NCBI GenBank assembly: GCA_944372055.1
Contig: CALVYF010000002.1
Span: 43,628-107,627, forward strand
Direction: 5' to 3'
DNA: 64,000 bases
Source: an uncultured Bacilli bacterium
GTDB lineage: Bacteria; Bacillota_I; Bacilli_A; RF39; UBA660
The notes under the pieces were generated by a model. It saw only the letters and a program-made list of their open reading frames with translations. It was not told where the DNA came from and searched no databases. The position numbers and the translations under genes are program-made. This document shows, in pieces, positions 32,448-48,716 of this stretch. Positions within the stretch are counted from its first letter, which is position 1, and each line of letters opens with the position of its first letter.

Positions 32448-33164
32448 TTAGTTATCTTTTGAATAAATAAATTCTATTTTACCAGTACCCTTTGTATTTA
32501 AAAGATTATGGTTTTCTAGTTGCCTTTTTACCTCTTTTGCAACTCCTATAGAACCATCTAATAAAGGTACATCTTTAAAGAATTTATGGATCTCATCTTT
32601 AATTAATGGATAATGTGTACAACCTAATACAATAGAATCTATTGGTGTATTTTTGGTTTTTTCTTTTACCTTTTCTAAAATGTCATTTATCTTTTCTTTA
32701 TTTTTTGTCTCTATTGCATTTGCAAGGCCATCACAAGATATTAATATGATTTCTTGATTCCCTTTTCTATTTTCTTCTATTAGCTCTTTTGTTCTTTCAG
32801 AGTCAATCGTAGATGGTGTTGCTAGTACTAGAGTGTGTTTATAGTTATTATCGCAAGCTACTTTGATTGCTGGAACGGTACCTACAAATGGAATATCTTT
32901 GTATTTTTCTTTTAGTTTTTTCATGCAACGTGTTGTTGCAGTATTACAAGCAATTACTATCATTTTACAGTCTTTTTCTTTTAGTAGGAACTCTACGATA
33001 TTTTCTACAATTTTATATATTTCTTCAGGAGACTTTTCTCCGTAGGGATTATTTTTACTATCTGCATAATAGACATAATCTTCTTTTGGAAGAAGTTTTA
33101 TTATTTCGTTTAGTACTGTTGTTCCACCTATTCCTGAGTCTAGGATGCCTATTTTTTTATTCAT
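32448..33164 (-). CDS. murI: Glutamate racemase
   Basis: GILDSGIGG, IACNTA and LGCTHYP motifs. Confidence 0.9.
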   Translation of the reverse strand: MNKKIGILDSGIGGTTVLNEIIKLLPKEDYVYYADSKNNPYGEKSPEEIYKIVENIVEFLLKEKDCKMIVIACNTATTRCMKKLKEKYKDIPFVGTVPAIKVACDNNYKHTLVLATPSTIDSERTKELIEENRKGNQEIILISCDGLANAIETKNKEKINDILEKVKEKTKNTPIDSIVLGCTHYPLIKDEIHKFFKDVPLLDGSIGVAKEVKRQLENHNLLNTKGTGKIEFIYSKDN

Positions 33165-33186
33165 ATGATACTTCCTTTCTAGGCTA

Positions 33187-34119
33187 TTATATCATAAAAG
33201 AAGTTTCGTCTAGAAATTTTATATTCGTTTGATATTTTAATTCTCTGACAAGACGAAATAGCGCTTCGTCTTTTTTCTTGGCTTCTAACATAATATCTAT
33301 ATCTTTATTTTCTTTTTTTAATATGTTTATAAACTTTATAAACTCTTTCACATCAATATAGTCATTATGACTTCGGTATTCTTTTTTTAATTTACTTTTG
33401 GGAGAAGAAAAATGCATTTTAGGAGTTATTTTCCATGTTTTTATAATACTTGGTAATAGTTCTTCTAAGCTTTTGTTGCTAGGATTGCATTGATGATGGT
33501 GATAATCTAAGATTACAGGAATGTTAGTCTTTTCTGATAAAGTTAGACAGTCTTCTACATTAAATGATTTATCATCGTTTTCTATAGCAATAGTTTTTTG
33601 TATAGACTTAGGTAGCTTTTTAAAGTTATTGATAAATCTTGTGATTGCTTTTTCTTTCCCAAATTCCTTACTTCCAATATGAAGGACTAATAGTGGCTCT
33701 TTTATGTCTAAAAACATTAATAAATTATAGTGATATTTTAATATATCTATACTTTGGTTTACTACTTCTTTTTTTGTGCTGTTTAGGACACAATATTCAC
33801 TTGGATGAAAATCGACTCGCATATTATTTTTCTTTATTTCTTTTTTTAGGGTGTGATAGATTTTCTTATAGTTATTGTAGTAATTCATATTTACTTCCTT
33901 TTTTGTTGCTAGTGGGATTAAATTGGAAGATATTCTAAAGAAATGAATATTATTTTTGTTGTTATAGATTAATAGTTCTTGTAAATGAAAAAGATTAGAG
34001 GTAATTATCTCCTCTAACTTCTTTTTATTTTGTTCTTTTATATAGTTACTATAGGTATATGTTTTATAATTAGTATTTAGTGTTTCACTAATACATGCGT
34101 ATCCTAATCTAATTTTCAT
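33187..34119 (-). CDS. uvsE: UV DNA damage endonuclease (UvsE/UVDE)
   Basis: MKIRLGYACIS start and a TIM-barrel UVDE pattern (HPSEY, LHIGS, IENDD, LDYHHH). The track ORF extends to 34209, but that overlaps the upstream gene. Confidence 0.75.
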   Translation of the reverse strand: MKIRLGYACISETLNTNYKTYTYSNYIKEQNKKKLEEIITSNLFHLQELLIYNNKNNIHFFRISSNLIPLATKKEVNMNYYNNYKKIYHTLKKEIKKNNMRVDFHPSEYCVLNSTKKEVVNQSIDILKYHYNLLMFLDIKEPLLVLHIGSKEFGKEKAITRFINNFKKLPKSIQKTIAIENDDKSFNVEDCLTLSEKTNIPVILDYHHHQCNPSNKSLEELLPSIIKTWKITPKMHFSSPKSKLKKEYRSHNDYIDVKEFIKFINILKKENKDIDIMLEAKKKDEALFRLVRELKYQTNIKFLDETSFMI

Positions 34120-34156
34120 AGTATCACCAGTATTAGTATTTCTCTTTTTGAAACTA

Positions 34157-34667
34157 TTATTTAGGTTTTTTGACATTATAATATTCGTTGTAGGCTTCGT
34201 GATTTCCATTTTGATAATAATCTATTGCTAGAGAAAGCACTGGACTATGTTTAAACTCTTTGATTATTTTGTCAATTTCTTGTTTCGTTAATTTATATCC
34301 TTGTACAAAACGGAGAAGAGAAAAATCTCCTTGGCTTAACATATGATTTAGTATTTCTTCTCTAGTCATGATATGATTTATTGTTAATTCTCTTGCCGCA
34401 CTGATATCATAGTATCCATTATATTCGTCATCAAAAGTAATGATTTCTTTTCCGGCTGTTACTCTAGCAATTTTTATTTCTTCTAACATTCCATTTACAT
34501 AGCGCAATGTATCTTCTAAATATGGTGTATAGTGAAATCCGGTACCCTTTGTTCTTTTTGTTAATATCATGTTATCTGGAATGCTATATGTTTTACCTTC
34601 TTCAAATTGTAACCCATATTTGATTAGTCATGTTTTTATTGAATGCTTTAAATCCTTGTTTTTGCAT
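34157..34667 (-). pseudogene. Conserved hypothetical gene, apparently frameshifted near its 5' end
   Basis: ATG at 34667 (RBS AAGGGA) gives MQKQGFKAFNKNMTNQIWVTI*. The adjacent frame continues as KYGLQFEEGKTYSIPDNMILTKRTKGTGFHYTP..., joining the 137-aa track ORF. Together they reproduce a GFKAF-x-MT...Y..G(K)TY...GFH pattern I recall from a family of uncharacterised proteins. Confidence 0.35.
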
Positions 34668-34675
34668 GTTATCCC

Positions 34676-35467
34676 TTATTTCAAAAATTTGTTGTTGATT
34701 TTATTTATAAAGTTGTATTCTTTTTTTCTAAAAACTTTGATTGTTCTTCCTTCTATTTTAACACTTACTTCTTCTACGTTTTTGTATTCATTATTGTCTC
34801 CATCAATTGTAATTAATAAATCTTTTGTTCTATTTTCTGGAGTTGCACTAATTTCTTTATTACTTGGAATAATAACTGAATTTAATAGATTACGATATGA
34901 TTTATTATTTAATGGTGCAATTGGTGTAATTTGAAGTGTATGAAAAGTATTATAGACGATACTTCCACCAAAGCTTAAGTTGTATGCAGTAGAACCAAAG
35001 GATGTTGATATTAAAATACCATCTCCTACATAATTTTCTAAAAGTTCTTTTTCTACCATTAATTTTAAATTTACTGTGTTTAAATCTATGTCTCGAATTA
35101 CAATTTCATTTAATGCTAATTGTTTTGATATACTATCTGGTGTTTTTATTTCAATTTCTGCAATGCCAATTTCTTCTATTTTGTAGTTTCCTTGTTCTAA
35201 ACTTTTAATAAATTCATTAATTTCATCTAGATTTATCTCTTGTGCAAATCCTAATGTTCCAGCGTTAATTCCTACATAAATGCATTCCTCATTGAAAGCT
35301 GTCTCTTTTACCATTCTTAGAAAAGAACCATCTCCTCCAATGGCGATGGCTATTTCATAATCTTCTTCGACGATTTTAAAGTTTTTCTTTTCTAATTTTT
35401 CTTTTATTGTTTTTGCAACTTCTAATGACTTTTCATTGTTATTTACAAATAATTTTACTTTTTTCAT
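34676..35467 (-). CDS. nadK: NAD kinase
   Basis: AIGGDGSFLR and the downstream STSFGSTAYNLSFGG motif. Confidence 0.9.
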   Translation of the reverse strand: MKKVKLFVNNNEKSLEVAKTIKEKLEKKNFKIVEEDYEIAIAIGGDGSFLRMVKETAFNEECIYVGINAGTLGFAQEINLDEINEFIKSLEQGNYKIEEIGIAEIEIKTPDSISKQLALNEIVIRDIDLNTVNLKLMVEKELLENYVGDGILISTSFGSTAYNLSFGGSIVYNTFHTLQITPIAPLNNKSYRNLLNSVIIPSNKEISATPENRTKDLLITIDGDNNEYKNVEEVSVKIEGRTIKVFRKKEYNFINKINNKFLK

Positions 35468-36297
35468 TTCTTTCCTTTATATTTAAATAATGCAGAAGGT
35501 CTGTGTCCTTCTCCTGTTTTCATTTTGTTTGTTTTTTCTACTTTGCTGGCAATGATTCTTCTAAATGCAGGATCTAATAATTTTTTATTTAGTATTACTT
35601 CATATACTTGTTGTAATTCACCTAGAGTAAAGTATTCTGGCATCATGTTAAAGACAATGTCTGTATAGTTAAGTTTATTCTTTAATCTTTCAAGACCGGC
35701 TAAGATAACAAGAGCATGGTCAAATGCTAATGCATCATTTTTTACTTCAATAAATTTATAGCGATCTGTTGTTTTTTCACGAAGTTCTTTCTTGATAGCT
35801 AGATGGATGGTATCTTTTCCATTATCTAGTGTAATATCTACAATATTATTTTTCTCTTCTAAAAGTACTACATCAAACCATGAGGTATTAGGATTAATCA
35901 TTTCTGTTAATCTATTTTTATCAACTAATGCTATATATGAAGTGGATACGACTCTTGTTCTTGGGTCTCTATCAAGTGCATCATAAGTATATAGTTGTTC
36001 TAAATAGATGTTTGATAAGTTTGTTTCATTCTTTAAAACTCTTTTTGCACATTCTTCTAGTGTCTCTGTTTTAGGATTTAAAAATCCTCCTGGTAAACAC
36101 CATTTTCCTTTGTAAGGAAAATCATCTCTTTTTACAAGTAAAATACTCATCATTTTTTTACTAGTTTTACGATAGTTATTACTTTCTTCATCTGATACAC
36201 TAATTAATAATATATCTGCAGTCATGGATAATTGATCAAATTCGCTTGGATCATAATCTTTTAAAAATTCTTCTTCAGTTTTATATTCTTTTTCCAC
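35464..36297 (-). CDS. nrtR: Nudix-related transcriptional regulator of NAD metabolism (NrtR-like: Nudix domain + C-terminal winged helix)
   Basis: Nudix fold with a degenerate box (GGFLNPKTETLEECAKRVLKNETN). C-terminal FTLGELQQVYEVILNKKLLDPAFRRII is typical of the NrtR wHTH. GTG start with an AAGAGGTGA RBS. Sits in an NAD gene cluster. Confidence 0.7.
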   Translation of the reverse strand: MEKEYKTEEEFLKDYDPSEFDQLSMTADILLISVSDEESNNYRKTSKKMMSILLVKRDDFPYKGKWCLPGGFLNPKTETLEECAKRVLKNETNLSNIYLEQLYTYDALDRDPRTRVVSTSYIALVDKNRLTEMINPNTSWFDVVLLEEKNNIVDITLDNGKDTIHLAIKKELREKTTDRYKFIEVKNDALAFDHALVILAGLERLKNKLNYTDIVFNMMPEYFTLGELQQVYEVILNKKLLDPAFRRIIASKVEKTNKMKTGEGHRPSALFKYKGKK

Positions 36298-36350
36298 GTT
36301 ATCACCTCTTATTTATAGATTGATTATAACATATTTTAGAAAAAATGTCG

Positions 36351-36824
36351 CTATTTTAATATTTTTAGCAACATTTCAATAATTCTTTCTATTACATGGT
36401 CTTTATTTAGTTTTCTACTTTCTTTATGTACTTCTATAGTCTCTCTATAATATTTATCATTTGTACTATCATAGATACTAATATATACAACATTATCTTT
36501 GCCAACGGGGTTAGCAGGATCTTGCCTGTTTAATTGGCCTGTGATTCCTACACCATAGTTACTGTTTGCAAATTTAGTAATATTTTTACTCATTTCATCA
36601 GCAGTTTCCATACTATATACGGTATATTTATCAATCACTTCACTTGATACACCCATTTTAATTTTATATTCATTAGAGTAAGTAACGGCACTGAATTTTA
36701 ATATTTCACTAGCTCCTTCACAGTTTGTAATAGCATTGGCAACTCCTCCACCAGTACATGACTCCATAGTAGCTATTGTTTCTCTTCTTTCTTGTAAAAT
36801 ATGTATTATCTCTTTAAAATCCAT
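36351..36824 (-). CDS. pncC: Nicotinamide-nucleotide amidohydrolase (CinA C-terminal domain, PncC)
   Basis: TMESCTGGGVA motif. 157-aa stand-alone CinA-C domain. Confidence 0.75.
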   Translation of the reverse strand: MDFKEIIHILQERRETIATMESCTGGGVANAITNCEGASEILKFSAVTYSNEYKIKMGVSSEVIDKYTVYSMETADEMSKNITKFANSNYGVGITGQLNRQDPANPVGKDNVVYISIYDSTNDKYYRETIEVHKESRKLNKDHVIERIIEMLLKILK

Positions 36825-37695
36825 TTTTATTCTCCTTACCTTTCGTTTTTATTTTGTGCGTTTTCTGATTAAAATATTTATTTTTCAATAAATTATATTT
36901 ATCTTCGTCTAACTCTTTTTTTATTTCTTCTTTTATTGTTTCTGGTACTCCATAATAACTTTCTGCTAGAGCACCTGCAATACTTGCGATAGTGTCCGTA
37001 TCGCCACCAATTGATATTGCTGTTCTTATAGTGCTTTCAAAGTCTTTTGATTGAAAAAAACAAAATAGTGCTTGTGGTACTGTGTCTTTGGCTTTAGATT
37101 TAAAAGTATTAGTGTGTCTTAATTCTTCTAAGTTGTAGTTCATAGGGTAATAATTTTTCTTTACATATTCTTTTACTTCTTCTTTTGGCATGCCAATTCT
37201 TAACAAATAGATTGTAATTGCAACTGCTTCCGCGCTTTTTATTGCATCTATATGATTGTGTGATGGTATGGTTGCTAGATACGATTGTTCTTTTATTTGT
37301 TCAAATGAATTAAAAATAAATCCAATAGGACTAATTCTCATAGCTGCCCCATTACCATAACTTGTTCCTTCATAGTTTCCTGTTATCCATTTTATAGAAC
37401 CTGGACTAAATCTTCCTCTTCCATATTTATCAAGGCCTTTTGCCAATTCTTTCTTTCCATATTCTTTTAAATAACTTTCATAGTCACAATCACCATTTAT
37501 AATAGCATCATAAATGGCACATGTCCAAACTGTATCATCTGTAAAGATGGAGTTCTCTGCAAATAATGGTGTTTTAGGATCCATGATTTTTATTCTTTCT
37601 TCGTATGGTCTAGGTTTTTTATATTCTTTCCAATAATTGATTTCTTCCATTTCATAATTAGAACCGGCTTTATCTCCTATGATTGCACCTAACAT
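36814..37695 (-). CDS. ADP-ribosylglycohydrolase family protein
   Basis: MLGAIIGDKAGSNYE N-terminus and SIGGDTDTIASIAGALAE metal-binding motif. Confidence 0.8.
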   Translation of the reverse strand: MLGAIIGDKAGSNYEMEEINYWKEYKKPRPYEERIKIMDPKTPLFAENSIFTDDTVWTCAIYDAIINGDCDYESYLKEYGKKELAKGLDKYGRGRFSPGSIKWITGNYEGTSYGNGAAMRISPIGFIFNSFEQIKEQSYLATIPSHNHIDAIKSAEAVAITIYLLRIGMPKEEVKEYVKKNYYPMNYNLEELRHTNTFKSKAKDTVPQALFCFFQSKDFESTIRTAISIGGDTDTIASIAGALAESYYGVPETIKEEIKKELDEDKYNLLKNKYFNQKTHKIKTKGKENKNGF

Positions 37696-37728
37696 GTTAC
37701 CACCTCTTTTTTACTTTATCATAGTTTC

Positions 37729-38634
37729 TTATTTCCACAAAACTTTTTTACCAAATCCGGCAGTTAATTTATTATCAGAGGTATAAACTAATTGAGTTGT
37801 ATAAGGACAATCACAGTCTTTTACCATTCTGGCATAATACTCTACTAATTTATTATGCTCAGTTAAATAGATTCCGTCTATGCATTCACAGTATTCTTTA
37901 CTATAAAAGTGGTGCCCTGGAAAGAAGTTTTCATCTAAGTTTTCAAAAATAGAATTAAAATTAATAAATTCTCTTTCAGCGTAAGGGTTACATTTCATTA
38001 ATGATACGAATCCAGTTTTATATACTCCTAAGTCTCCCACATATGTTAGCATCTTCTTTATTTCATCTAAAGAATTAATTCCACTTTGCATAATTATTGT
38101 ATTAATGTTAATGATTTTTTTGTCTTTTAGATGGTGTTCTAAATCTATTATATCTTCTGTTGTAGCAATCTTTTTAGAATGAAAAATACTTTCGTTTTTT
38201 CTATCATCATAGTGATGTCTAGAGATATGAATGCTTTCTAATTTATTTACTTTATCATAGTTTTTAAATTCTCTACAGTTATATCCGTTTGTTGATATCG
38301 CCACTTCCATATCTTCATCTATTTTATAAATTAAATCTAATACTTGAAATAGTTTCGTAGGATTTGTCATAGGTTCCCCACCGGTAATACTAATACCATG
38401 AAGCATATCTTTTTCTTTTAGATAACTGATGACAAAAGCTAGTTTTTCTAGATCTATCGTTCCAAAATCCTTACTTTGGCGATTAGCACAAAACTGGCAG
38501 TTTGCAAAACATTGATCTGTTAGTTTTATATATAGTCTTAAAGATGGTTTTGTTTTTCTTAGCTTGGTTGGACTATCTGAACAATAATAATCTTTTACTG
38601 GTAATTCTTCATCAAAGATTTTTATTCTTTCCAT
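37729..38634 (-). CDS. Radical SAM enzyme of unknown specificity
   Basis: CFANCQFCAN (CxxxCxxC), GGEP, ISTNGY, and C-terminal Cys pairs CECIDG and CDCPY. ATG at 38634 lies 2 nt after the stop of the preceding ORF (the track start at 38643 is TTG). Confidence 0.75.
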   Translation of the reverse strand: MERIKIFDEELPVKDYYCSDSPTKLRKTKPSLRLYIKLTDQCFANCQFCANRQSKDFGTIDLEKLAFVISYLKEKDMLHGISITGGEPMTNPTKLFQVLDLIYKIDEDMEVAISTNGYNCREFKNYDKVNKLESIHISRHHYDDRKNESIFHSKKIATTEDIIDLEHHLKDKKIININTIIMQSGINSLDEIKKMLTYVGDLGVYKTGFVSLMKCNPYAEREFINFNSIFENLDENFFPGHHFYSKEYCECIDGIYLTEHNKLVEYYARMVKDCDCPYTTQLVYTSDNKLTAGFGKKVLWK

Positions 38635-38636
38635 AT

Positions 38637-39023
38637 TTAACAACCACCTCTATACGTACTCCTTTGTCCACTACAGCCAGTAGACCAATAAGATGGTTCA
38701 TATGATGATCTGCAAGGATCACTGTGGTATTGATGATAGTGAATGGTTTCTTGTTCTCTTTTTACCTTTTTCTTAGGTTTATCTGATGCAGTATTTTCTA
38801 ATAAAGCACTGATATCACAACTTCCTAGTTTTTCTTTTATGGTTAATAGTTCATCCGTGCAGTTAATTACTTGGTCTAGGTCACTTAATGTATTATCATC
38901 TGCCATTTTTGTTAAATCTAAATAACTTCTAAATTGTAATAAATTTCTTTTTGTTTCTTCTTTCTGGGTACTTTGATTTATGATTTTTCCTACAAAATCA
39001 ATTAAATCTTGTCTTTCAAACAT
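38637..39023 (-). CDS. 128-aa protein with a His/Tyr/Ser/Cys-rich C-terminal tail; candidate radical-SAM substrate or partner
   Basis: The C-terminus is HYHQYHSDPCRSSYEPSYWSTGCSGQRSTYRGGC. The ATG lies 2 nt after the nadR stop, with AAAGGAGAA as RBS. The RBS of the radical SAM gene is encoded within its last codons. Confidence 0.55.
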   Translation of the reverse strand: MFERQDLIDFVGKIINQSTQKEETKRNLLQFRSYLDLTKMADDNTLSDLDQVINCTDELLTIKEKLGSCDISALLENTASDKPKKKVKREQETIHYHQYHSDPCRSSYEPSYWSTGCSGQRSTYRGGC

Positions 39024-39025
39024 AA

Positions 39026-40033
39026 TTATTCTCCTTTTAATAATTTATTTACATATTCTTTTGCTTTTTCATAACGTTCTTCGTAATTTCCTGTAATTGT
39101 TTCGTATTTAATGTGATTTTCTTTTAATATTTGTTTTAATATCTTATTATTTTCTTTTCTTACTTCGTCTTTTCCATAAGTTCTTGTGCCATCTTGTACC
39201 CAGGCGACATCTGGTTCTAGAAATAGATATAAATCATAATTATTTAAATTAGAAATACTCGTGGCAATAGTTTCAAAATCTTTTTCACTTTGTTCTTTAA
39301 AACCTAGTTTGTAATAATATAGTGTAATTAATGAATCGGTGTCGATAAATAGAACTTTATTGGCATGTTCTAAAGCAATCTTTTCATCTTGTTTATGCTG
39401 AAAAAGTATTTCAAAGTAGTGATACTTTTGCATATTATCAATTCCACCTGCTTCATCACAGATATATCTTCCTGCTTCTTCTACATGCGTAGTGTTATAT
39501 GCTTTGGCTAGATTTCTAACTAGTGTTGTTTTACCACAACTTTCTGTACCAATGATGCATACTTTTTTTGTATAATATTTCCTTACACATGCTGGAAGAT
39601 AATCAAAATATTTATATGGATTTTGTCTAATTTCTGTTGAAGATATATTAATTTCTTTTCTATCAAAATAGATAACTTTACTTTCTTTATAAAGATTTTC
39701 CCATAGGTTTTCTCCTTTATAATCACTTCCTGCAAATACTACGTCTATTTTTCTTCCTATATAGTTTTTTACATCTTGTACTCCTTGTTCCCAGTCATAT
39801 GTTTCTTTATTTAAGTTCTTTGAATAGATTGGGAATACTTCTACATTTTCCATATCTTGAGTAACATTTTTTAGCCACGTGATTCTGGTTTTTTCGTCTA
39901 TTTCTTTTGGATCATCACTGATACTTATTGGAATATATAATTTTTTGCATTGATTCTTTGCCATGATAATATCGTTTACATGTCCTAGGTGTAGAGGGTT
40001 AAATGTTCCTCCATACATTCCTATTTCATACAT
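39026..40033 (-). CDS. nadR: Bifunctional NMN adenylyltransferase / ribosylnicotinamide kinase (NadR type, no HTH domain)
   Basis: GMYGGTFNPLHLGHVN (HxGH nucleotidyltransferase) and the IIGTESCGKTTL P-loop of the RNK domain. Confidence 0.8.
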   Translation of the reverse strand: MYEIGMYGGTFNPLHLGHVNDIIMAKNQCKKLYIPISISDDPKEIDEKTRITWLKNVTQDMENVEVFPIYSKNLNKETYDWEQGVQDVKNYIGRKIDVVFAGSDYKGENLWENLYKESKVIYFDRKEINISSTEIRQNPYKYFDYLPACVRKYYTKKVCIIGTESCGKTTLVRNLAKAYNTTHVEEAGRYICDEAGGIDNMQKYHYFEILFQHKQDEKIALEHANKVLFIDTDSLITLYYYKLGFKEQSEKDFETIATSISNLNNYDLYLFLEPDVAWVQDGTRTYGKDEVRKENNKILKQILKENHIKYETITGNYEERYEKAKEYVNKLLKGE

Positions 40034-40737
40034 TTTACATCCTCCTTTGCAATCTTTGACCAGTTATAATAACCATAGAAAGCATTTACTAAATATACTG
40101 CCCACATGGTTACCATAATGTAGTCTTTTACGTGCCACCACATAATTACTGTAATAATATCTATTACTATCCATAGTAGCCATTGTTCTCTATATCTTAA
40201 TACCATCAATAGATTAGCAACAACTGAGATTACTGTAGAGGCGCTGTCTAGTAAAGGATTTGTACCGCCTAAGTGATCTAATAAATATTGGTATAGAAAA
40301 ATACCTATTCCTGTAATTATTAATAAGATAATAGAATGTTTTATATTTAGTTTTTTTCCTTGTACTTCACCATCTTCTTTCTTGGTATTTTTACTCCATA
40401 AATAGTAACCAATGAATTGTAATGGTAGATAATAGATAGCATTTAACATCACTTCTCCATAGTATTTATGGATCCAAGCTACAACGATATATCCTAATAT
40501 GTTGAAGAATCCCCAGAAGTATTGACTACGTTTTCCTTTGGCACATAGTACTACACAAAATATTCCAGATATCGCAGCAATCGCATCAATTACTATATAA
40601 ATTAAACTATCTTCTTTATTTATGATGGCAAAATAGGTAGTGAAGAGTGTGACTGCTAGAATCATACTCCATTCAAAGACTGAAAACTTTTTAATAGCTT
40701 TTAATAACATGATAGACACTTCCTTTCTTTTCTTCAT
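40021..40737 (-). CDS. pnuC: Nicotinamide riboside transporter PnuC
   Basis: 7-TM protein with WxxxW-rich helices (QWLLWIVIDIITVIMWW) typical of PnuC. Adjacent to nadR. Confidence 0.75.
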   Translation of the reverse strand: MKKRKEVSIMLLKAIKKFSVFEWSMILAVTLFTTYFAIINKEDSLIYIVIDAIAAISGIFCVVLCAKGKRSQYFWGFFNILGYIVVAWIHKYYGEVMLNAIYYLPLQFIGYYLWSKNTKKEDGEVQGKKLNIKHSIILLIITGIGIFLYQYLLDHLGGTNPLLDSASTVISVVANLLMVLRYREQWLLWIVIDIITVIMWWHVKDYIMVTMWAVYLVNAFYGYYNWSKIAKEDVKCMK

Positions 40738-41317
40738 ATAAATGGTTTTCTTTGATATAGTTATAAATTTTTCTATCTATATATACTCTTGCTTTTAGGC
40801 TATTGTTTTGTTTTAAATATGTTCTGATTTTTGTAGATGAAATTGTTTTTTCTTTTACTTTTGTTACAATGATGTTTTGTCTATATTGCCTATATTTTTT
40901 TAATAGTGACTCAACTTCATCTGTTTTTCTTTTGATAACTAATATTTTGTAGTTTTTTAAAATCTCTTGTCCGTTTTTCCATTTGTCGATGTAACTTAAG
41001 TTATCTGTTCCGCAAATGAAATAAATTTCATCGTCTTTATATTTTTTCTTAAAATGTTTTAGAGTTTCGTAAGTATAGATTGGTTTTTGTTGCAATTCAT
41101 ATTTACTAATTGCCATGTTTTTTTCTTTTTCTATCATTAGTGATAGCATATCTACTCTTTTTTCGTTTGATATTAGATTTGTTTTATATTCATATTTCAT
41201 ACCTGTTGGTACAAAGATTACTTTATCTACATATCCTTTTTTTATTAACACTTTGGCTATTTTTTTATGCATTTTATGAGGTGGATTAAAACTTCCTCCA
41301 AATATTCCTATTTTCAT
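40691..41317 (-). CDS. nadD: Nicotinate-nucleotide adenylyltransferase
   Basis: MKIGIFGGSFNPPHKMH (HxGH-type) and ISSTKIR motifs. Confidence 0.85.
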   Translation of the reverse strand: MKIGIFGGSFNPPHKMHKKIAKVLIKKGYVDKVIFVPTGMKYEYKTNLISNEKRVDMLSLMIEKEKNMAISKYELQQKPIYTYETLKHFKKKYKDDEIYFICGTDNLSYIDKWKNGQEILKNYKILVIKRKTDEVESLLKKYRQYRQNIIVTKVKEKTISSTKIRTYLKQNNSLKARVYIDRKIYNYIKENHLYEEKKGSVYHVIKSY

Positions 41318-42387
41318 AAGTTTTTCTCCTTTCTTAAGGTTAATATTTTTTCTTTTCCATTGAATAATGGTTTTAATGATTCTTTTTCATGTAAGGCATT
41401 GATGATTTTTGCGATGCTTTCTGAACAGTTTACTGTATATAGCCAATCTTTTTCTTTATATTCTTCTGGTATATAAGATAAGTTTGTTGTATATAGCTTG
41501 TCGAAGTAATTATTTTGATAAGCTTTATCAAATTCTTCTATTCCTTCTGTAAATAGTGAGAAAGTTGCGATAAAGTATACTTTTCTTGCTCCTTCTTTTT
41601 TTAATCTTTCTCCTACTTCTAACATAGAAGTACCACTAGCTATCATGTCATCTACAATTAAAATATCTTTTCCTTCTACACTTGGTCCCATGTAAGTGTG
41701 TTCTATGATAGGATTTTTACCATTTACTACTTTTGTTAAATCACGTCTTTTATAGAAAACTCCTACATTAGTATCTAACATTTCGGCAAAGTATCTAGCA
41801 CGTTCTGTTGCTCCCATATCAGGGCTGATTACTAAAATATCTTCTAAATCTTCCTTGGTTAATAAATCTTCTAGGATTGTATTCGTTGGATAGAAGTTTT
41901 CAAATGGAAGATTTGGTATCGCGTTTGAAATTGTTGGGTCATGGGCGTCAAATGTAATGATATGATCTACTCCCAGATTTTGTAATTCTTGTAAAGCAAT
42001 CGCACAATCAGCTGACTCTCTACCTTTTCTTTTATGCTGTCTTGATTGATATAGTAGTGGCATAATTAATGTTATTTTTTCTTTATATCCAGAGATTGCT
42101 GATATTGTTCTTTTAATGTCTTGAAAGTGTTCATCTGGTGCCATATGGTGAGTAAATCCATGCATATTATAAGTAATTCCATAATTTCCTACATCTGCTA
42201 AAAGATAGATATCTTTTTCTCTTACGGAATCTTCTATTTTTACTTTTCCTTCTCCATTAGAAAATCTAGAAGATGTGATGTTTAACATATAATTTTTATT
42301 TGTGTTTCTTAATTTATTTAACTTAGCATTTACTTCTTTTCCTATTTCTTTGATATTATCTAAAGCAATGATTTTCATATTATTCAT
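41314..42387 (-). CDS. prs: Ribose-phosphate pyrophosphokinase (long Firmicute type)
   Basis: DAHD, ILIVDDMIASGTS (PRPP loop). The start is preferred at MNNMKII (42387) with RBS AAGAGGTGA. The track start at 42408 lies inside the operator. Confidence 0.75.
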   Translation of the reverse strand: MNNMKIIALDNIKEIGKEVNAKLNKLRNTNKNYMLNITSSRFSNGEGKVKIEDSVREKDIYLLADVGNYGITYNMHGFTHHMAPDEHFQDIKRTISAISGYKEKITLIMPLLYQSRQHKRKGRESADCAIALQELQNLGVDHIITFDAHDPTISNAIPNLPFENFYPTNTILEDLLTKEDLEDILVISPDMGATERARYFAEMLDTNVGVFYKRRDLTKVVNGKNPIIEHTYMGPSVEGKDILIVDDMIASGTSMLEVGERLKKEGARKVYFIATFSLFTEGIEEFDKAYQNNYFDKLYTTNLSYIPEEYKEKDWLYTVNCSESIAKIINALHEKESLKPLFNGKEKILTLRKEKNL

Positions 42388-42398
42388 AATTTCACCTC

Positions 42399-42418
42399 TT
42401 ATTAACATTTTATTAATA
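42399..42418 (-). promoter_or_regulatory. Candidate NAD-regulon (NrtR?) operator directly upstream of the prs RBS
   Basis: TTATTAACATTTTATTAATA, i.e. TTATTAA-N7-TTAATA, the same palindrome as at 42912, 48624 and 48680. Confidence 0.5.
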
Positions 42419-42438
42419 TCTTATTTTAAAAAAATATA

Positions 42439-42842
42439 CTATCTTCTAAATTCCTTTACTTGTCTTTTGGCTTCTATTTTTATTCCATTACAATAAGGTT
42501 TTTCTTCTTGATGCTCCATTTGTCCATAACCTGTCCATTCTGTATCTATGCCATTATCAATCCATAGTTTATTTACTTCATATCCTTGTTCTTCTAATAG
42601 GTTTTTAAAAATTCCTTCATACTCTTCAAACGGAATTACTCTTTTTACTGGTATTTCTGTATCTAACAATGTTGTAGTTCCAGAAAGTTCTATTGTTGTA
42701 ACTGCTGCGGCATGTTCAGTTGTATAGTAATCAACTTGTTCTTTTTTGTTTTCATTTTTACAATTCCTTTAATATCTTCTTTTGATCTATAATAGTCTGT
42801 CAAAATTCTTTCCACTTTATCTTTACTAATTGTCATTTCCAT
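42439..42842 (-). pseudogene. Small conserved hypothetical gene interrupted by a frameshift in an A5 run
   Basis: ATG 42842 gives MEMTISKDKVERILTDYYRSKEDIKGIVK.... The adjacent frame continues as NENKKEQVDYYTTEHAAAVTTIELSGTTTLLDTEIPVKRV..., joining the 76-aa track ORF. The shift lies at the homopolymer 42756-42760. Confidence 0.45.
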
Positions 42843-42911
42843 AGTATCTCTTCTTTCTTTTTATTATTTTGTTAATAACATATATTAAAAGTTTTACAGA
42901 TTTTTCATCTG

Positions 42912-42948
42912 TTATTAACATTATATTAATATCTGATTAATTTGTCAA
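42912..42948 (-). promoter_or_regulatory. Consensus sigma-A promoter with an overlapping operator, driving the prs-nadD-pnuC-nadR-...-nadK operon
   Basis: The minus strand reads TTGACA(42948-42943)-17 nt-TATAAT(42925-42920). The palindrome TATTAATATAATGTTAATAA spans the -10 box. Confidence 0.6.
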
Positions 42949-42998
42949 CTACTTTTTTATTTTTTTATAAAAAAGAATCTCAAGTTCGAGATTCCTAA

Positions 42999-43862
42999 TT
43001 ATTTTTTTGTTACTTTATCATAGTCTTCTTTTGATATACCTACTACAGGGGTAGCTATATTTTCTTCGTTTTTAACTACTATTGGTAGCCCGTTCTCAAA
43101 TGTATTTGCCCATTCTTCTCTTGGTATATTACATGGTATTTCTAATAGACCTGTTGCAAAGCCTAAAACCATCAATCTATCCATAGTACGATGTAAGTCC
43201 GTCCATTGGCTTCCATCTTTTTTTATGCATAAATTTGTAAAAGTCGTTCCTGTTTCTATTCCATAAAGTTCATTTATCATGTTATTAATTTCACTTTTAT
43301 GTTCATTTAATCTCTCTGTATTAAATACAACCGCAGTAGCAACTCCGATTGCAAAGGAAAAATCTTTAGTTGGCTTTCCGTCTTGTAGCTCTTCTTCCTT
43401 GAATAAACACTCGTTAAAGATTTGATTTACGTTTTTAGCAGTTAAATATCCTTTGCTTTTAGTTAGTTCTTGCAATTGTCTTAATAGCTCTCCTTCAGAT
43501 AAAGGAATGTCTGGACTTCTATGGTTGTAGGTTCCTACTACTTCCTTTATAAAGGCTTTAACCATTCCTTCGTATTCATCTGGATATTTACTTTTTATTT
43601 CTTTACTTTTTTGATGAAACTGTTCTAGTATTTCTTCTGTTCTATTTTTTCTTATTGTTTTTAATAAAAATGATGGGTCTTCTCTATTTATATAACTTAT
43701 TATAGCCATTTCAAATATTTTAGTATTATTCTTTTCTATTAATTTTTGAAATTTTTCTAATTCTTCCAAGGTATATATCGATTTTCCGTAATAATGAAAC
43801 CAATGGTTTAATAGTTGAAATTTTTCCTCTTGTGTATATTCGTTCCATTCTTTTATTTCCAT
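42999..43862 (-). CDS. Hypothetical 287-aa protein
   Basis: ORF track entry with a GAAGGAATACT-ATG RBS. No motif recognised. Confidence 0.4.
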   Translation of the reverse strand: MEIKEWNEYTQEEKFQLLNHWFHYYGKSIYTLEELEKFQKLIEKNNTKIFEMAIISYINREDPSFLLKTIRKNRTEEILEQFHQKSKEIKSKYPDEYEGMVKAFIKEVVGTYNHRSPDIPLSEGELLRQLQELTKSKGYLTAKNVNQIFNECLFKEEELQDGKPTKDFSFAIGVATAVVFNTERLNEHKSEINNMINELYGIETGTTFTNLCIKKDGSQWTDLHRTMDRLMVLGFATGLLEIPCNIPREEWANTFENGLPIVVKNEENIATPVVGISKEDYDKVTKK

Positions 43863-43891
43863 AGTATTCCTTCTTTCTTTTTTTATTATAC

Positions 43892-43916
43892 AGAAAAAGC
43901 TTGAATTTTCAAGCTT
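43892..43916 (-). terminator. Rho-independent terminator overlapping the nadE stop codon
   Basis: AAGCTTGAA/TTCAAGCTT perfect palindrome followed by TTTTT on the minus strand. Confidence 0.6.
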
Positions 43917-45852: not shown

Positions 45853-45880
45853 TCTCCTTTTTTATAGTGTATCAAATATT

Positions 45881-46504
45881 TTATTTTTTTACTAAACTTT
45901 TTGCCTTTTCTATAGTAAATTGAGATTGGAGATCTGTAATATATCCACGTTCTACTAATTCTATTGTTTCATCAAAGCTACATTCAAAATAACGGATAAT
46001 TTCATCTTTATCTAAGTTCTGTTCTTTTGTTTTTTTACAACCTAGTGCTAGCATACTATAGTTATATGCTGCACTGCATCCTTGATCTTGATAGAAACTA
46101 GCTAATAGTTTCATTTCTTCTGGCACGTACCCTGTTTCTTCTTCTAATTCTCTTTTTCCTGCGGTTAATGGATCTTCTTCTTTTTCTAAATATCCAGCAG
46201 GTAATTCTACACATACTGTTTCTTTTGTAAATACCCTTGGTTGTACTACTAATAAAGTATTTCCTTCTTTTGTGATTGGTAAGATAATTGCAGCATTACC
46301 ATCACTTCCCCCTTTTACTATTTTTTCTCTTGGTATTATTATTCCATTTTGCAGTTTACAATTATAACTTTCTACATTAATGAATCCTTTTCTTTGGATA
46401 GGCTCTGTTCCTTGATATATAAATTCCTCTTTTTTTCTTTCTTTTGTGATTGTTTGTAATTCTTTTATATAATCTCTTAATTCTTCTAGTTTTTCTTTGC
46501 GCAC
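45881..46504 (-). CDS. Nudix hydrolase, ADP-ribose pyrophosphatase-like
   Basis: Nudix box GYLEKEEDPLTAGKRELEEETGY. Located between pncB and nadE. Confidence 0.7.
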   Translation of the reverse strand: MRKEKLEELRDYIKELQTITKERKKEEFIYQGTEPIQRKGFINVESYNCKLQNGIIIPREKIVKGGSDGNAAIILPITKEGNTLLVVQPRVFTKETVCVELPAGYLEKEEDPLTAGKRELEEETGYVPEEMKLLASFYQDQGCSAAYNYSMLALGCKKTKEQNLDKDEIIRYFECSFDETIELVERGYITDLQSQFTIEKAKSLVKK

Positions 46505-47957: not shown

Positions 47958-48013
47958 ACTTATTCTCCTTTTCTTTTTAGCTTTTTATTAATATCAACAT
48001 TTTAAAAAAATAA

Positions 48014-48610: not shown

Positions 48611-48623
48611 TTTTCACTTCTCC

Positions 48624-48644
48624 TTATTAACATTTTATTAATAA
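48624..48644 (-). promoter_or_regulatory. Candidate NAD-regulon operator adjacent to the pncA RBS
   Basis: TTATTAACATTTTATTAATAA, a perfect TTATTAA-N7-TTAATAA palindrome 13 nt upstream of the pncA ATG. Confidence 0.5.
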
Positions 48645-48679
48645 CATATGTTTCAAAAAATACAAGTCAGCTGTACTTG

Positions 48680-48716
48680 TTATTAACATTATATTAATAT
48701 CTAAAATATTTGTCAA
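48680..48716 (-). promoter_or_regulatory. Consensus sigma-A promoter with an overlapping operator, driving pncA-pncB-nudix-nadE
   Basis: The minus strand reads TTGACA(48716-48711)-17 nt-TATAAT(48693-48688), with the palindrome TTATTAACATTATATTAATA across the -10 box. The 20-nt operator/-10 core (48680-48699) is identical to 42912-42931; within the spacers only the 5 nt flanking the operator and the 3 nt next to the -35 box match, and the 9 nt between them differ. Confidence 0.6.

Follow-up and report, generated by a model that had tools for sequence, protein, structure and literature searches.

A conserved pair of a radical SAM enzyme and a cysteine-terminated partner protein, often encoded beside pnuC-nadR in gut Firmicutes and some giant phages

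The nucleotide enzymes MoaA and viperin are the closest described relatives, in fold, of the radical SAM enzyme reported here (hereafter rSAM). MoaA is of similar size and draws a second Fe-S site from its C-terminal beta-rich part, using three C-terminal Cys residues; its key GTP-binding arginines are R17, R266 and R268 (named after PDB entry 2fb2). Viperin and pVip, like rSAM, have about 300 residues and no SPASM domain, and both groups have members in phage-host conflict settings, but viperins lack the auxiliary Cys triad and the partner protein that characterize the system described below. In the peptide maturase systems CteB/SCIFF, YydG/EpeE, SkfB, SuiB and MftC, as in this locus, the radical SAM gene adjoins that for its probable target protein, which has a leader-like N-terminal part and a reactive C-terminal part. 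CteB, the maturase of the six-Cys ranthipeptide SCIFF, has a three-Cys auxiliary site whose open iron binds a substrate Cys, and the chemistry of MftC falls on the last residue of its substrate.

Two further groups of systems bear on this locus. In LarE, THI4, DsrC and the C-terminal tail of ribonucleotide reductase, sulfur or reducing equivalents come from a Cys, either on a flexible C-terminal arm or in a protein that turns over once, and none of these partners a radical SAM enzyme, unlike the small protein described here. LarE, which forms the nickel-pincer cofactor from NaAD, and THI4, which forms thiazole from NAD, both use NAD-derived substrates. With respect to NAD salvage, nadR-pnuC-nrtR clusters have already been described, and the usual NrtR operator has the core GT-N7-AC (Rodionov 2008). 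Phage PnuC and NadR form an NAD-restoring pathway, NARP3, that works without a radical SAM enzyme and partner of the kind described here (PMC13464706). The published PnuC-NadR pathways are complete with two genes and leave radical SAM enzymes unmentioned, such that the pair reported here is an unexplained addition to them.

We analysed a window of 64,000 nt from an uncultured Bacilli bacterium, which contains an operon with the gene order prs-nadD-pnuC-nadR-ORF128-rSAM-ARH-pncC-nrtR-nadK, preceded by a single consensus promoter. The elements of the operon that are needed here are the following.
42920-42948, minus strand: operon promoter, TTGACA-17-TATAAT, matching the consensus at 12/12 positions.
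42912-42933, minus strand: operator-like motif GATATTAATATAATGTTAATAA, overlapping the -10 box.
40021-40737, minus strand: pnuC, nicotinamide riboside transporter family; homologues in related loci match Pfam NMN_transporter.
39026-40033, minus strand: nadR, NMN adenylyltransferase and ribosylnicotinamide kinase (NCBIfam NF005988, 212.5 bits, cut-off 201; Pfam CTP_transf_like and AAA_28).
38637-39023, minus strand: ORF128, partner protein of 128 aa plus stop, with a helical N-domain and a disordered Cys-ended tail.
37729-38634, minus strand: rSAM, radical SAM enzyme of 301 aa with its ATG at 38634; Pfam Radical_SAM and Fer4_12 only.
36814-37695, minus strand: ADP-ribosylglycohydrolase gene (ARH; Pfam ADP_ribosyl_GH), a neighbour and not a conserved member of the unit.
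35464-36297, minus strand: nrtR, Nudix-related regulator (Pfam NrtR_WHD and NUDIX).

The preliminary description of this DNA, made from the letters alone, had reported two tightly coupled ORFs between nadR and ARH, in an operon with overlaps or gaps of 53 nt or less. The translations and coordinates agree with that account, including the tail and linker of the first ORF and the CFANCQFC, CEC and CDC motifs of the second. Intergenic distances are -4 nt (prs-nadD), -47 nt (nadD-pnuC), -13 nt (pnuC-nadR), 2 nt (nadR-ORF128), 2 nt (ORF128-rSAM), 33 nt (rSAM-ARH), -11 nt (ARH-pncC), 53 nt (pncC-nrtR, the largest) and -4 nt (nrtR-nadK). The nadR stop codon thus lies 2 nt ahead of ORF128, and the rSAM ATG (MERIK...) lies 2 nt past the ORF128 stop; an alternative TTG start for rSAM lies at 38643. 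The ribosome-binding site of rSAM, AGAGGTGG, can be read within the YRGGC codons of ORF128, and that of ORF128, AAAGGAG, within the final nadR codons, both as previously noted. The ORF128 and rSAM genes are translationally coupled.

In a scan of positions 33000-49000, the minus strand showed perfect sigma-70-type promoters at two places only, 42948 and 48716, and a terminator-like hairpin (42973-42996) lies directly upstream of the former. A second copy of the operator-like motif is located at 42399-42420, ahead of prs. In the window as a whole, the 22-bp motif has five matches with ≤3 mismatches (four of them with 0-1), against 0.09 expected, and the matches fall ahead of the window's two NAD operons. 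Its core is kept upstream of the operon in 24 related loci. The earlier proposal of one operator-controlled promoter for the whole operon agrees with the single consensus promoter and the recurring operator-like motif, which does not follow the GT-N7-AC core (Rodionov 2008). NrtR is likely to be the regulator of the operon, and the presence of nrtR together with the shared operator-like motif places the ORF128-rSAM pair in a putative NrtR-controlled NAD regulon. An Rfam scan of the window for riboswitches returned two tRNAs only.

To define the family, we collected rSAM homologues at E≤1e-30 and took one from each 50%-identity cluster, which gave 137 representatives; the motif SRHHY was the search pattern that recovered the family from genomes and viral contigs. 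The family alignment comprises 128 sequences, namely the window protein and 127 representatives, and a broader alignment (A4) was too divergent to serve as a locus query. We propose this as a new family, marked by C18, CX3CX2C, S-R-H and C249xC251 in an enzyme of ~300 aa that is encoded next to a small Cys-ended ORF. All of these motifs occur in the window protein, and each occurs in ≥98% of the 128 sequences, with the exception of R139 (85%).

We then surveyed 71 distinct family loci for a neighbouring ORF of 60-215 aa that is on the same strand and has Cys as its last residue. Such a partner was present in 63/71, consistent with the earlier suggestion that the two ORFs are a functional pair. 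Among gut Bacilli, ORF128 lies directly upstream of rSAM in 26 of 27 loci (L001-L027), and the contig of the remaining one, L020, begins at rSAM; the pair is retained in the middle of the core NAD operon in the sampled loci, with rSAM identities of 55 to 98%. Both pnuC and nadR were found in the fetched flanks of 39/71 loci, in at least five gene orders, and these loci come from uncultured gut Bacilli, Clostridia and two giant-phage contigs. The link to NAD that had been noticed in the window is thus real and broader than the window, extending to distant Clostridia and to phages, although about 45% of family loci have no NAD gene within the fetched flank. Clostridia with the unit include cultured Butyrivibrio and Eubacterium ruminantium, from rumen and gut, and the source records of the unit are gut and rumen anaerobes and metagenomic phage contigs. 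The vibriophage genes of KVP40 type annotated 'MoaA/NifB/PqqE' near pnuC/nadR were considered as relatives and set aside, since a tblastn search of phage records returned no vibriophages among the family members.

Additional genes accompany the pair in other clades. These encode a HemN-like radical SAM protein, in one case fused to the family enzyme (P0164), and an RlmN-like radical SAM protein; the HemN-like partner is nearest to the STM4012 family (166 bits, cut-off 380). Clostridial cassettes, and these only, encode an HExxH metallopeptidase-VWA protein, which is accompanied by a MoxR ATPase and an LRR protein. A universal third component was not found: neither the Bacilli nor the phage loci encode a homologue of the C-terminal domain seen in the Clostridial LRR protein, and the gene that opens the Bacilli operon, of 136 aa, is limited in distribution to these Bacilli. 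The HxsA-D and STM4012-type systems are likewise uncharacterised cassettes with several radical SAM enzymes, and HxsC is the third-best NCBIfam match of rSAM, at 47.8 bits against a cut-off of 267.9. HYSHYS in one relative had raised the idea of a His-Xaa-Ser system, which was rejected since the motif is HYxHY, not a His-Xaa-Ser repeat, and is restricted to the gut-Bacilli clade. Taken together, the sequences indicate that ORF128-rSAM is a conserved two-gene unit. We found no description of the module in the literature, and it appears to be an undescribed conserved unit, often beside pnuC-nadR, in gut Firmicutes and some giant phages. Its genomic linkage points to an unknown step linked to NAD metabolism.

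The rSAM protein belongs to the radical SAM superfamily (Pfam PF04055, E 3.6e-15, above cut-off), and its AF2 model (pLDDT 86) matches radical SAM structures. Its features are as follows.
38581-38583, minus strand: Cys18, N-terminal member of a second Cys triad; 127/128 sequences, invariant in alignments A1 and A4.
38488-38511, minus strand: CFANCQFC, residues 42-49, the CX3CX2C motif for the SAM-binding [4Fe-4S] cluster (C42, C46 and C49, each in 127/128 sequences).
38209-38223, minus strand: SRHHY family signature, residues 138-142 (S138 in 100%, R139 in 85% and H140 in 98% of 128 sequences).
37990-37992, minus strand: Cys215, clade-specific, occurring where the family-wide Cys179 is lost (T179 here).
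37882-37890, minus strand: C249-E-C251, C-terminal CxC of the second Cys triad; 126/128 sequences.

Position 179 is Cys in 120/128 sequences and Thr in all 18 close-clade sequences, 17 of which have C215. It had been proposed that two C-terminal Cys pairs could hold an auxiliary cluster. The CEC pair is indeed near-invariant, but CDC (residues 274-276) is not family-wide, with C276 conserved only in the close clade and C274 not conserved; C18 joins the CEC pair instead. We infer that the triad of C18 and C249-x-C251 binds an auxiliary [4Fe-4S] cluster with one open iron. Such a cluster would parallel the second Fe-S site of MoaA in being held by the C-terminal beta-rich part, although rSAM would use one N-terminal Cys and a CxC in place of three C-terminal Cys residues.

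The closest PDB folds are MoaA (TM 0.66 over about 290 columns) and then viperin, with peptide maturases lower; these relatives (MoaA, viperin, YydG, SuiB) are generic only, and a viral structure library added nothing specific. MoaA is also the best sequence-model match, yet rSAM reaches only 60.2 bits against the TIGR02666 equivalog cut-off of 284. In the profile alignment, MoaA R17 pairs with Tyr35 of rSAM and R71 with Ser82, and the only widely conserved basic residues among the 128 aligned sequences are R139, H140 and R269. Together, the scarcity of conserved basic residues and the alignment of R17 to Y35 argue against a nucleoside-triphosphate substrate. No moaB/C/D/E molybdenum-cofactor genes are among the listed ORFs of window positions 30000-50500 or in related loci, and rSAM, unlike MoaA, has a dedicated Cys-terminated partner protein. 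The viperin model NF038283 gives 38 bits against a cut-off of 180, and the PADLOC pVip match has an E of only about 1e-12, over the core. Glycyl-radical activase models likewise score low (PflA, 31.7 bits, cut-off 231.75; NrdG2, 36.9 bits, cut-off 131), and the glycyl-radical motif RVxG is absent from the partner tail. Hence, rSAM does not fall into the viperin, MoaA or activase families, which had been raised as small-molecule alternatives. It lies below every family cut-off in NCBIfam, and neither it nor ORF128 has a family-level match in the curated libraries (Pfam, NCBIfam, PADLOC).

The partner protein consists of two parts, with the features listed here.
38796-39023, minus strand: residues 1-76, N-domain of four to five helices (AF2 helices 4-76, pLDDT about 75-86).
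38640-38795, minus strand: residues 77-128, basic linker, HYxHY and Ser/Cys-rich tail (pLDDT <60).
38727-38741, minus strand: HYxHY motif, clade-specific.
38673-38675, minus strand: C117 codon, nearly invariant, in the gut-Bacilli clade only.
38640-38642, minus strand: codon of Cys128, the last residue and the sole tail feature kept family-wide.

The translated tail, HYHQYHSDPCRSSYEPSYWSTGCSGQRSTYRGGC, is preceded by the linker KPKKKVKREQE. The N-domain is homologous to that of the Clostridial partners (hhalign probability 70%, E 3.9e-5); comparison of the ORF128 model with PDB folds gave no significant match, and no ferredoxin/flavodoxin-like or other recognisable fold. We propose that it is a docking or recognition domain. 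Conservation of ORF128, on which the earlier reading depended, is confirmed by homologues that fill 36 protein clusters, and these homologues, the adjacency to rSAM and the predicted helical N-domain indicate that ORF128 is a real gene and exclude a chance ORF. The Cys/His/Tyr-rich tail that had been taken as a hallmark is present here but is lineage-specific: in the gut-Bacilli clade alone, H95, Y96, Y99 and C128 never vary and H98 and C117 are nearly invariant (≥90%), and the features general to the family are the helical N-domain and the final Cys. Partners are about 87-202 aa long, the number of (S/D)SCG repeats varies from 1 to 5, and many partners have a single Cys (e.g. ...RRRREEELATRGRC) and a charged helical tail.

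We tentatively favour, at somewhat less than an even chance, a reading in which rSAM modifies the C-terminal Cys tail of its partner, and in which the product stays inside the cell and serves nicotinamide-riboside salvage. ORF128 and rSAM would then form a two-component system with ORF128 as the protein substrate. The helical N-domain would dock on the enzyme as a built-in leader, and the disordered tail would bring the C-terminal Cys into the active site of an enzyme with the MoaA/viperin fold, an auxiliary [4Fe-4S] cluster on the second triad, and one more conserved Cys, the seventh, at position 215 here and at 179 in most relatives. The Cys thiolate, and perhaps also the free carboxylate, would bind the open iron, and the 5'-deoxyadenosyl radical would take a hydrogen at or beside the terminal Cys. 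The covalent change in the tail would be formation of a thioether, or else oxidation, decarboxylation or desulfurisation of the Cys. The modified protein, kept in the cell, would act with the PnuC-NadR route, with which the unit would be co-transcribed in the window from an operator common to the NAD regulon.

Several observations are consistent with tail modification. Tail length and repeat number vary freely while the terminal Cys stays, which suggests a partner of leader-plus-core type, and we count the tailoring-type accessory genes of other clades in its favour. The gene pairing, the N-domain homology between Bacilli and Clostridia, the near-invariant Cys triad with its counterpart in CteB, the scarcity of conserved basic residues and the NAD linkage also speak for it. 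Conversely, the nearest folds, MoaA and viperin, act on nucleotides rather than peptides; no RRE, SPASM/twitch domain, protease or exporter is encoded in the window; a precursor would normally be shorter than this partner; and the setting is a housekeeping NAD operon, with phage PnuC-NadR working without the unit (NARP3, PMC13464706), so that a modified protein has no obvious contribution to make. Each of these argues against tail modification.

The main rival, which is possible but which we consider rather doubtful, is that the substrate is a pyridine nucleoside or nucleotide (NR, NMN, NaMN, NAD, NaAD or ADP-ribose) and that the terminal Cys of ORF128 is a consumable donor of sulfur, or of a hydrogen atom or electron, on the model of the Cys of LarE/THI4 or the C-terminal Cys arm of class I ribonucleotide reductase. 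The extra SCG Cys residues of some clades would donate too, and a modified pyridine nucleotide or cofactor would form in small amounts. This would suit the nucleotide-enzyme folds, the co-regulation with the NAD regulon, the variation of tail Cys copies from 1 to at least 5, and the repeated linkage with pnuC-nadR, prs, Nudix, nucleoside deoxyribosyltransferase-like and SLOG-domain genes in bacteria and phages. SLOG is a predicted nucleotide-binding fold. We also count for it the MoxR-VWA pair of the Clostridial cassettes, which we take to resemble metal-insertion chaperones. On the other hand, the triphosphate-binding R17 of MoaA is not conserved and conserved basic residues are few; stoichiometric consumption fits a trace product only, and no consumer enzyme is evident in the operon; and NAD genes are missing from the fetched flanks of about 45% of loci. 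No sequence or fold similarity of ORF128 to LarE, THI4, DsrC or ribonucleotide reductase was found, and no Lar or Thi genes occur here. We know of no precedent for a free-standing protein as sulfur or hydrogen donor to a radical SAM enzyme, which counts against this rival. A more specific form of it, which we regard as unlikely, is that the unit is a new pyridine-nucleotide branch of anaerobes and giant phages, in which the Cys arm is the sacrificial donor for converting NR, NMN, NAD or NaAD to a modified nucleotide. One possibility for this nucleotide is a sulfur-bearing, metal-binding cofactor of the nickel-pincer type, with MoxR-VWA inserting the metal in the Clostridial cassettes; another is an NAD analogue that resists NAD-degrading immune enzymes.

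Alternatively, ORF128 could be a structural or redox subunit that remains unaltered, its terminal Cys serving as fourth ligand of the auxiliary cluster or in delivery of iron/sulfur or electrons, with the substrate elsewhere. The invariant three-Cys triad and the terminal Cys would make a complete four-Cys site, and gene coupling suggests 1:1 expression, but a long, disordered tail of variable length and repeat number is unusual for a fixed ligand or electron-transfer module, and the N-domain has no recognisable fold of the ferredoxin/flavodoxin or any other kind. We consider this improbable. It is also improbable, in our view, that the unit is a mobile conflict module that merely travels with NAD genes, either as a viperin-like enzyme that makes an antiviral or anti-defence nucleotide or as a toxin/effector controlled by MoxR-VWA-LRR. 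Family members do occur on giant-phage genomes, phage PnuC-NadR is itself an anti-defence pathway, there are weak PADLOC pVip matches, and the Clostridial cassettes encode MoxR, VWA-metallopeptidase and LRR proteins, and the small protein weakly matches EAD10 (E 0.0046, below cut-off). However, the pVip score reflects generic core similarity (38 bits, cut-off 180), and a position in the middle of a core NAD operon, behind a shared operator, in gut Bacilli is the pattern of a housekeeping gene and not of an island. Kaur et al. (2020) describe a MoxR-VWA-FtsH conflict system whose effector is a radical SAM protein; it differs in architecture and taxa, and we do not equate it with the present unit.

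It is very improbable that ORF128 is a classical RiPP precursor, with leader and core, of a secreted sactipeptide- or ranthipeptide-like product. A Cys-rich C-terminal region does adjoin a radical SAM gene, and there are low-ranking matches to YydG, PapB, SCIFF and CcpM maturase models, but every maturase score is far under its cut-off (PqqE, 19 bits against 381 for rSAM; SCIFF maturase, 23 bits against 425 for the phage member L084). The likeness to RiPP and cofactor maturation that had been drawn does not extend to its typical equipment: the operon has no PqqD-like ORF or RRE, the partner N-domain being an all-helical bundle without a match, and no leader peptidase or ABC exporter, all window neighbours of the unit being NAD genes. 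As the preliminary description had noted, rSAM lacks an RRE and a full SPASM domain; there is no SPASM match at E≤0.01, only C249-x-C251 is conserved in the C-terminal part, and a beta-hairpin of about 30 residues is all that precedes the core. Unlike the precursors of peptide maturases, the partner (about 87-202 aa) has a folded domain, many partners carry just one Cys and have a tail that is charged and helical, and the operon is a regulated one of primary metabolism. The earlier view that the enzyme is atypical for RiPP maturases stands; no known RiPP or cofactor system was found to match the unit, and no published description of it was found. The suggestion that ORF128 is an ADP-ribosylation target with the directly downstream ARH as its eraser is hardly credible, since ARH was detected in only 3/71 loci (L007, L022, L025) and so is not a conserved member of the unit, no ADP-ribosyltransferase is encoded in the operon, and ARH has its own place in the regulon by supplying ADP-ribose, the effector of NrtR (Rodionov 2008).

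NAD salvage is considered to be completely charted, and PnuC-NadR was lately shown to be a two-gene phage counter-defence (NARP3). The unit lies inside or beside the PnuC-NadR route in uncultured gut Bacilli with reduced genomes, in rumen and gut Clostridia, and in giant phages, and its recurrence in three such different settings implies an undescribed step or accessory function. For enzymology, it offers a small system that is open to experiment, with just two genes and about 430 residues, in which the Cys residues are unusually arranged and the partner can be told by its final residue. Microbiome and phage biologists can use it to trace a variant NAD module among organisms known from samples of gut, rumen and faeces. 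If the product were a new pyridine-derived cofactor or a protected NAD analogue, it would matter both for cofactor biochemistry and for NAD-centred conflict between phages and their hosts.

The preliminary description of two adjacent ORFs was reproduced in its coordinates, tail, 2-nt spacing, Cys motifs and both ribosome-binding site (RBS) positions. ORF128, the small partner protein, and rSAM, the radical SAM enzyme, are encoded as follows:

38637-39023, minus strand: ORF128, 128 aa, ending in KPKKKVKREQETIHYHQYHSDPCRSSYEPSYWSTGCSGQRSTYRGGC followed by the stop codon
37729-38634, minus strand: rSAM gene (ATG at 38634, end at 37729), 301 aa, starting 2 nt past the ORF128 stop

The rSAM motifs CFANCQFC, CEC and CDC occupy residues 42-49, 249-251 and 274-276. 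The RBS of rSAM (AGAGGTGG) lies within the YRGGC codons of ORF128, and that of ORF128 (AAAGGAG) within the final nadR codons. The gene order is prs-nadD-pnuC-nadR-ORF128-rSAM-ARH-pncC-nrtR-nadK (ARH, ADP-ribosylglycohydrolase), with successive gaps of -4, -47, -13, 2, 2, 33, -11, 53 and -4 nt, the largest being 53 nt, as had been claimed. The NadR protein scores above its NCBIfam cut-off, and ARH, CinA/PncC and NrtR (NUDIX plus NrtR_WHD) give clear Pfam matches. Two genes near the pair, but not the pair itself, carry likely sequencing frameshifts. The first gene of the operon (42439-42842, minus strand) encodes an ~136-aa protein without a Pfam family; compared with two close relatives (L007 and L008), it has lost 1 nt from an A-rich stretch near 42745, which shifts its frame. 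This protein family occurs only in NAD operons of these gut Bacilli, always immediately after the operator.

Perfect TTGACA-17-TATAAT promoters occur only twice on the minus strand between 33000 and 49000, at 42948 and 48716, and a terminator-like hairpin (42973-42996) lies between the two transcription units. A 22-bp motif, GATATTAATAnAATGTTAATAA, has five matches at ≤3 mismatches versus 0.09 expected:

42399-42420, minus strand: motif copy, 0-1 mismatch
42912-42933, minus strand: motif copy, 0-1 mismatch
48624-48645, minus strand: motif copy, 0-1 mismatch
48680-48701, minus strand: motif copy, 0-1 mismatch
47974-47995, minus strand: weaker motif copy

The four copies with 0-1 mismatch form two pairs, one before each NAD unit; within each pair, one copy overlaps the -10 box and the other lies near the first RBS, and a different short palindrome separates them. 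Twenty-four related loci keep the motif core, on their coding strand, and, where positions were compared (L001, L005, L016 and L022), the motif lies just upstream of the operon, including at the minimal locus L005, which holds only a 134-aa protein, NMNAT, pnuC, the small ORF and rSAM. Given the presence of the motif at both NAD units and its conservation in related loci, we conclude that the pair is part of a co-regulated NAD regulon. The earlier proposal of one operator-controlled promoter stands as regards a single promoter (42948) with a repeated motif; NrtR is a putative binder. The motif, an imperfect palindrome (ATTAAyAT.ATrTTAAT), does not fit the usual NrtR site core of GT-N7-AC (Rodionov 2008), and hence may represent a new class of NrtR site or the site of another regulator.

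The upstream unit starts with pncA (isochorismatase-family protein), followed by pncB, a Nudix gene and nadE. Its pncB (NAPRTase) appears split into ORFs of 304 aa and 165 aa (46486-47400 and 47460-47957, minus strand), where relatives have one ~490-aa protein; either an assembly error has introduced a second frameshift or a stop, or the gene is a pseudogene. At the end of the unit, 42999-43862 (minus strand) encodes a 287-aa protein that lacks Pfam matches, a further uncharacterised regulon member; the closest relative, L007, has a 290-aa counterpart (53% identical) at the same position, and L001-L004 have ORFs of 241-259 aa there with no Pfam hit. Rfam matches in the window comprise only two tRNA genes (Thr-GGT and Arg-CCG, 26246-26439, minus strand), and no NAD riboswitch was found before pnuC or the NAD operons.

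An rSAM 98% identical to that of the window belongs to a MAG of Candidatus Faecimonas intestinavium (Bacilli incertae sedis); other relatives come from uncultured gut Bacilli, mostly recorded as 'uncultured Bacilli', 'uncultured Tenericutes' or Ca. Coprovivens. The enzyme is strongly conserved in this group: 18 homologues, each with 63-83% identity to the window protein, give an alignment with a mean column identity of 76%. The small ORF is likewise conserved: it lies directly upstream of rSAM in 26 of the 27 loci L001-L027 (rSAM identity 55-98%), the exception (L020) being a contig that begins at rSAM. The pair comes after nadR in these loci (after pnuC if nadR is reduced) and is surrounded by NAD genes.

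An exhaustive HMMER search recovered 137 representative rSAM-family proteins at E≤1e-30 (one per 50%-identity cluster), nearly all of 285-330 aa and aligned over their full length. A scan of species-representative genomes for the SRHHY pattern detected the family chiefly among Clostridia, under record names such as Lachnospiraceae, Butyrivibrio isolates, Eubacterium ruminantium, Christensenella, Ruminococcaceae and Mageeibacillus, and in one Paludibacteraceae MAG. Cultured carriers include Butyrivibrio sp. VCB2006, B. proteoclasticus P6B7 and Eubacterium ruminantium FB3002. About 15 Clostridial loci (L044, L047, L057-L059, L061-L064, L067, L068, L071, L078, L080) carry a long cassette, in the order small protein, BspA-type LRR protein, rSAM, DUF2201_N protein (HExxH metallopeptidase-like plus VWA), MoxR-like AAA, pnuC, nadR and sometimes nrtR. 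The small protein of this cassette is helical, has 92-123 aa and ends in RGRC; L068 deviates in having a 141-aa small ORF, ending in SWC, after rSAM. A compact version (L065, L070, L073, L074, L077) runs small protein, LRR, rSAM, pnuC, nadR and sometimes nrtR, and a third context, with no NAD genes in the flank, runs rSAM, small protein (mostly ending in RC), LRR, DUF2201, MoxR. In a fourth, a small protein with an SSCG-type tail precedes rSAM and a HemN-like rSAM, or the HemN-like protein precedes rSAM; one locus of this group, L034 from Bacilli, has nadD, pncC and nadK nearby. The Paludibacteraceae rSAM is preceded by a 97-aa helical protein ending in YIYRC. The HemN-like partner, found at L028-L039 in some Clostridia and Bacilli, is nearest the uncharacterised STM4012 family, and in one family protein (P0164) it is naturally fused to rSAM; L034 and phage contigs further have a truncated RlmN/Cfr-like radical SAM protein. 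The system thus exists in versions that rely on two or three radical SAM enzymes. In the Clostridial loci L044, L047, L057-L064, L067-L068, L071, L078 and L080, the LRR, DUF2201 HExxH-VWA and MoxR genes are tightly linked to the rSAM pair and pnuC-nadR; the BspA-type LRR protein is intracellular, and its C-terminal domain (...FWQS...YRRxYLS...AKYKLLSIL) has no annotated family.

Searching phage records with tblastn revealed full-length family members in uncultured phages of 630-735 kb. In LR756502 the pair, whose small ORF ends in SSSCGDSKPSSDCGMGGGYSTSRC, adjoins a convergent block of nadR, pnuC, a TonB-dependent receptor and a Nudix gene. The receptor, an outer-membrane protein (10810-12861 of locus L084, minus strand), lies directly beside pnuC-nadR and the Nudix gene, which suggests a phage-borne complete nicotinamide riboside (NR) uptake route for an outer-membrane host. 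A 182-kb IMG/VR contig carries pnuC, a SLOG-domain gene (a predicted nucleotide-binding fold) and then nadR, a small ORF ending in SDPCGHSVSYRGC and rSAM; nadR and the small ORF overlap, and the order of these last three genes is that of the window. Other viral contigs combine the pair with genes for Prs-like, RlmN-like radical SAM and nucleoside-deoxyribosyltransferase-like proteins. On phage contig L087, the rSAM ORF as listed lies ~660 nt (7277-7938) away from the small ORF, or ~720 nt if counted from its likely MELINLF start, and no convincing ORF was found on that strand in the interval; at the other closely inspected loci, the two adjoin each other, are split only by a HemN-like or LRR gene, or are ≤~140 nt apart (L085). 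Phage PnuC and NadR form NARP3, a two-gene NAD-restoring counter-defence pathway published in 2026 (PMC13464706), and that paper mentions no radical SAM enzyme.

Of 71 distinct family loci, which are phylogenetically non-independent, 63 have a neighbouring ORF of 60-215 aa on the same strand whose last residue is Cys. Most misses come from truncated loci or minor variants; examples are L034, where the partner is further upstream, and L090, whose ORF ends in CS. The proposed pairing thus holds across the family, and the NAD context holds in part: pnuC and nadR are both present in 39 of the 71 loci and not both in the others, counts that are limited to 6-8 kb flanks and may understate or misstate linkage in some loci. 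Chance or recent transfer can hardly explain the association with pnuC-nadR, which is seen in at least five gene orders, in both Bacilli and Clostridia and on two phage contigs, at rSAM identities of 25-35% between groups.

Profile and structure searches placed rSAM in no well-characterised family. Pfam matches only Radical_SAM and Fer4_12, and the best NCBIfam models, MoaA (60 bits; cut-off 284), the tungsten-cofactor radical SAM maturase (52; 380), HxsC (48; 268) and the viperin family (38; 180), all score far below their cut-offs. Membership tests reject rSAM as a MoaA, viperin, activase, Hxs, PQQ, mycofactocin or SPASM maturase. Its AF2 model (pLDDT 86) matches the folds of MoaA (TM 0.66, E 4e-12) and viperin best, with SuiB, EpeE/YydG and SkfB ranked lower; in the profile alignment, the GTP-binding R17 of MoaA (key arginine named in PDB entry 2fb2) falls at Tyr35, and R71 of MoaA at Ser82. 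An alignment of 128 sequences (the window protein and 127 of the 137 representatives) shows conservation of C18, C42, C46, C49, GGEP, TNG, S138-R139-H140, C249, C251, Y267 and R269. Position 179 (38098-38100) is Cys in 120 of the 128; the 18 aligned sequences of the window's clade all have Thr there, and 17 of them have Cys at 215 (37990-37992), where other members have V/I/L. From the alignment, a functional cysteine, a putative catalytic or fourth-ligand residue, seems to have been relocated, and C18, C249 and C251 form a putative three-Cys auxiliary-cluster site.

Partner alignments divide the small protein into a conserved N-domain of ~76 residues, a linker rich in basic residues, the motif KHY(G)HY and one to five (S/D)SCG repeats, the very last residue being Cys. 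H95, Y96, Y99 and C128 are invariant among the gut-Bacilli partners and H98 and C117 nearly so; C104, of the DPC sequence, is missing even in close relatives. AlphaFold predicts helices at residues 4-76 (pLDDT about 75-86) and disorder at 77-128. Foldseek found no significant match for the ORF128 model, and the N-domain is therefore not an RRE (RiPP recognition element), ferredoxin or DsrC-like fold. By hhalign (probability 70%, E 3.9e-5), the N-domain is homologous between the small proteins of Bacilli and those of Clostridia.

We tentatively suggest that the small protein could be the substrate of rSAM, with its terminal Cys altered and the product serving the NR-to-NAD route inside the cell. 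The helical domain would dock on the enzyme, the disordered tail would bring its terminal Cys to the open cluster iron at C18/C249/C251, the end of the tail would be changed by radical chemistry, and the modified protein would stay intracellular. This reading draws on the architecture, namely a leader-like domain and a variable tail with one invariant residue, the three-Cys site and few conserved basic residues, and on the extra tailoring enzymes and peptidase of other clades. The main alternative, somewhat less likely, is that the terminal Cys, again the reactive group, is sacrificed to supply sulfur or hydrogen while the enzyme acts on a pyridine nucleoside or nucleotide; this would better account for the MoaA/viperin fold and the NAD linkage, but we know of no enzymological precedent for such a donor to a radical SAM enzyme. 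Lesser candidates are a cluster-ligand or redox subunit that is not consumed, an effector of a conflict system and an exported RiPP formed by the tail. A standard RiPP cluster, the maturation type first considered, is rejected, since SPASM domain, RRE, protease and exporter are absent (the first two as the preliminary description had noted) and the locus is a regulated housekeeping operon. ADP-ribosylation of the small protein, with ARH as eraser, is also a lesser reading and fails on conservation, ARH being detected in only 3 of the 71 loci (L007, L022 and L025).

The NrtR regulons of Rodionov 2008 include nadR-pnuC-nrtR and list no gene of this kind, and the MoxR-vWA-FtsH system with a radical SAM effector (Kaur et al. 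2020) was rejected as an equivalent because its architecture differs from that of the rSAM-small-protein module. The suggestion of a previously undescribed system linked to NAD is thus upheld, the chemistry of the pair being putative: we found no description of the pair or module in the literature, and what the family presents is a radical SAM enzyme with its own dedicated protein partner.
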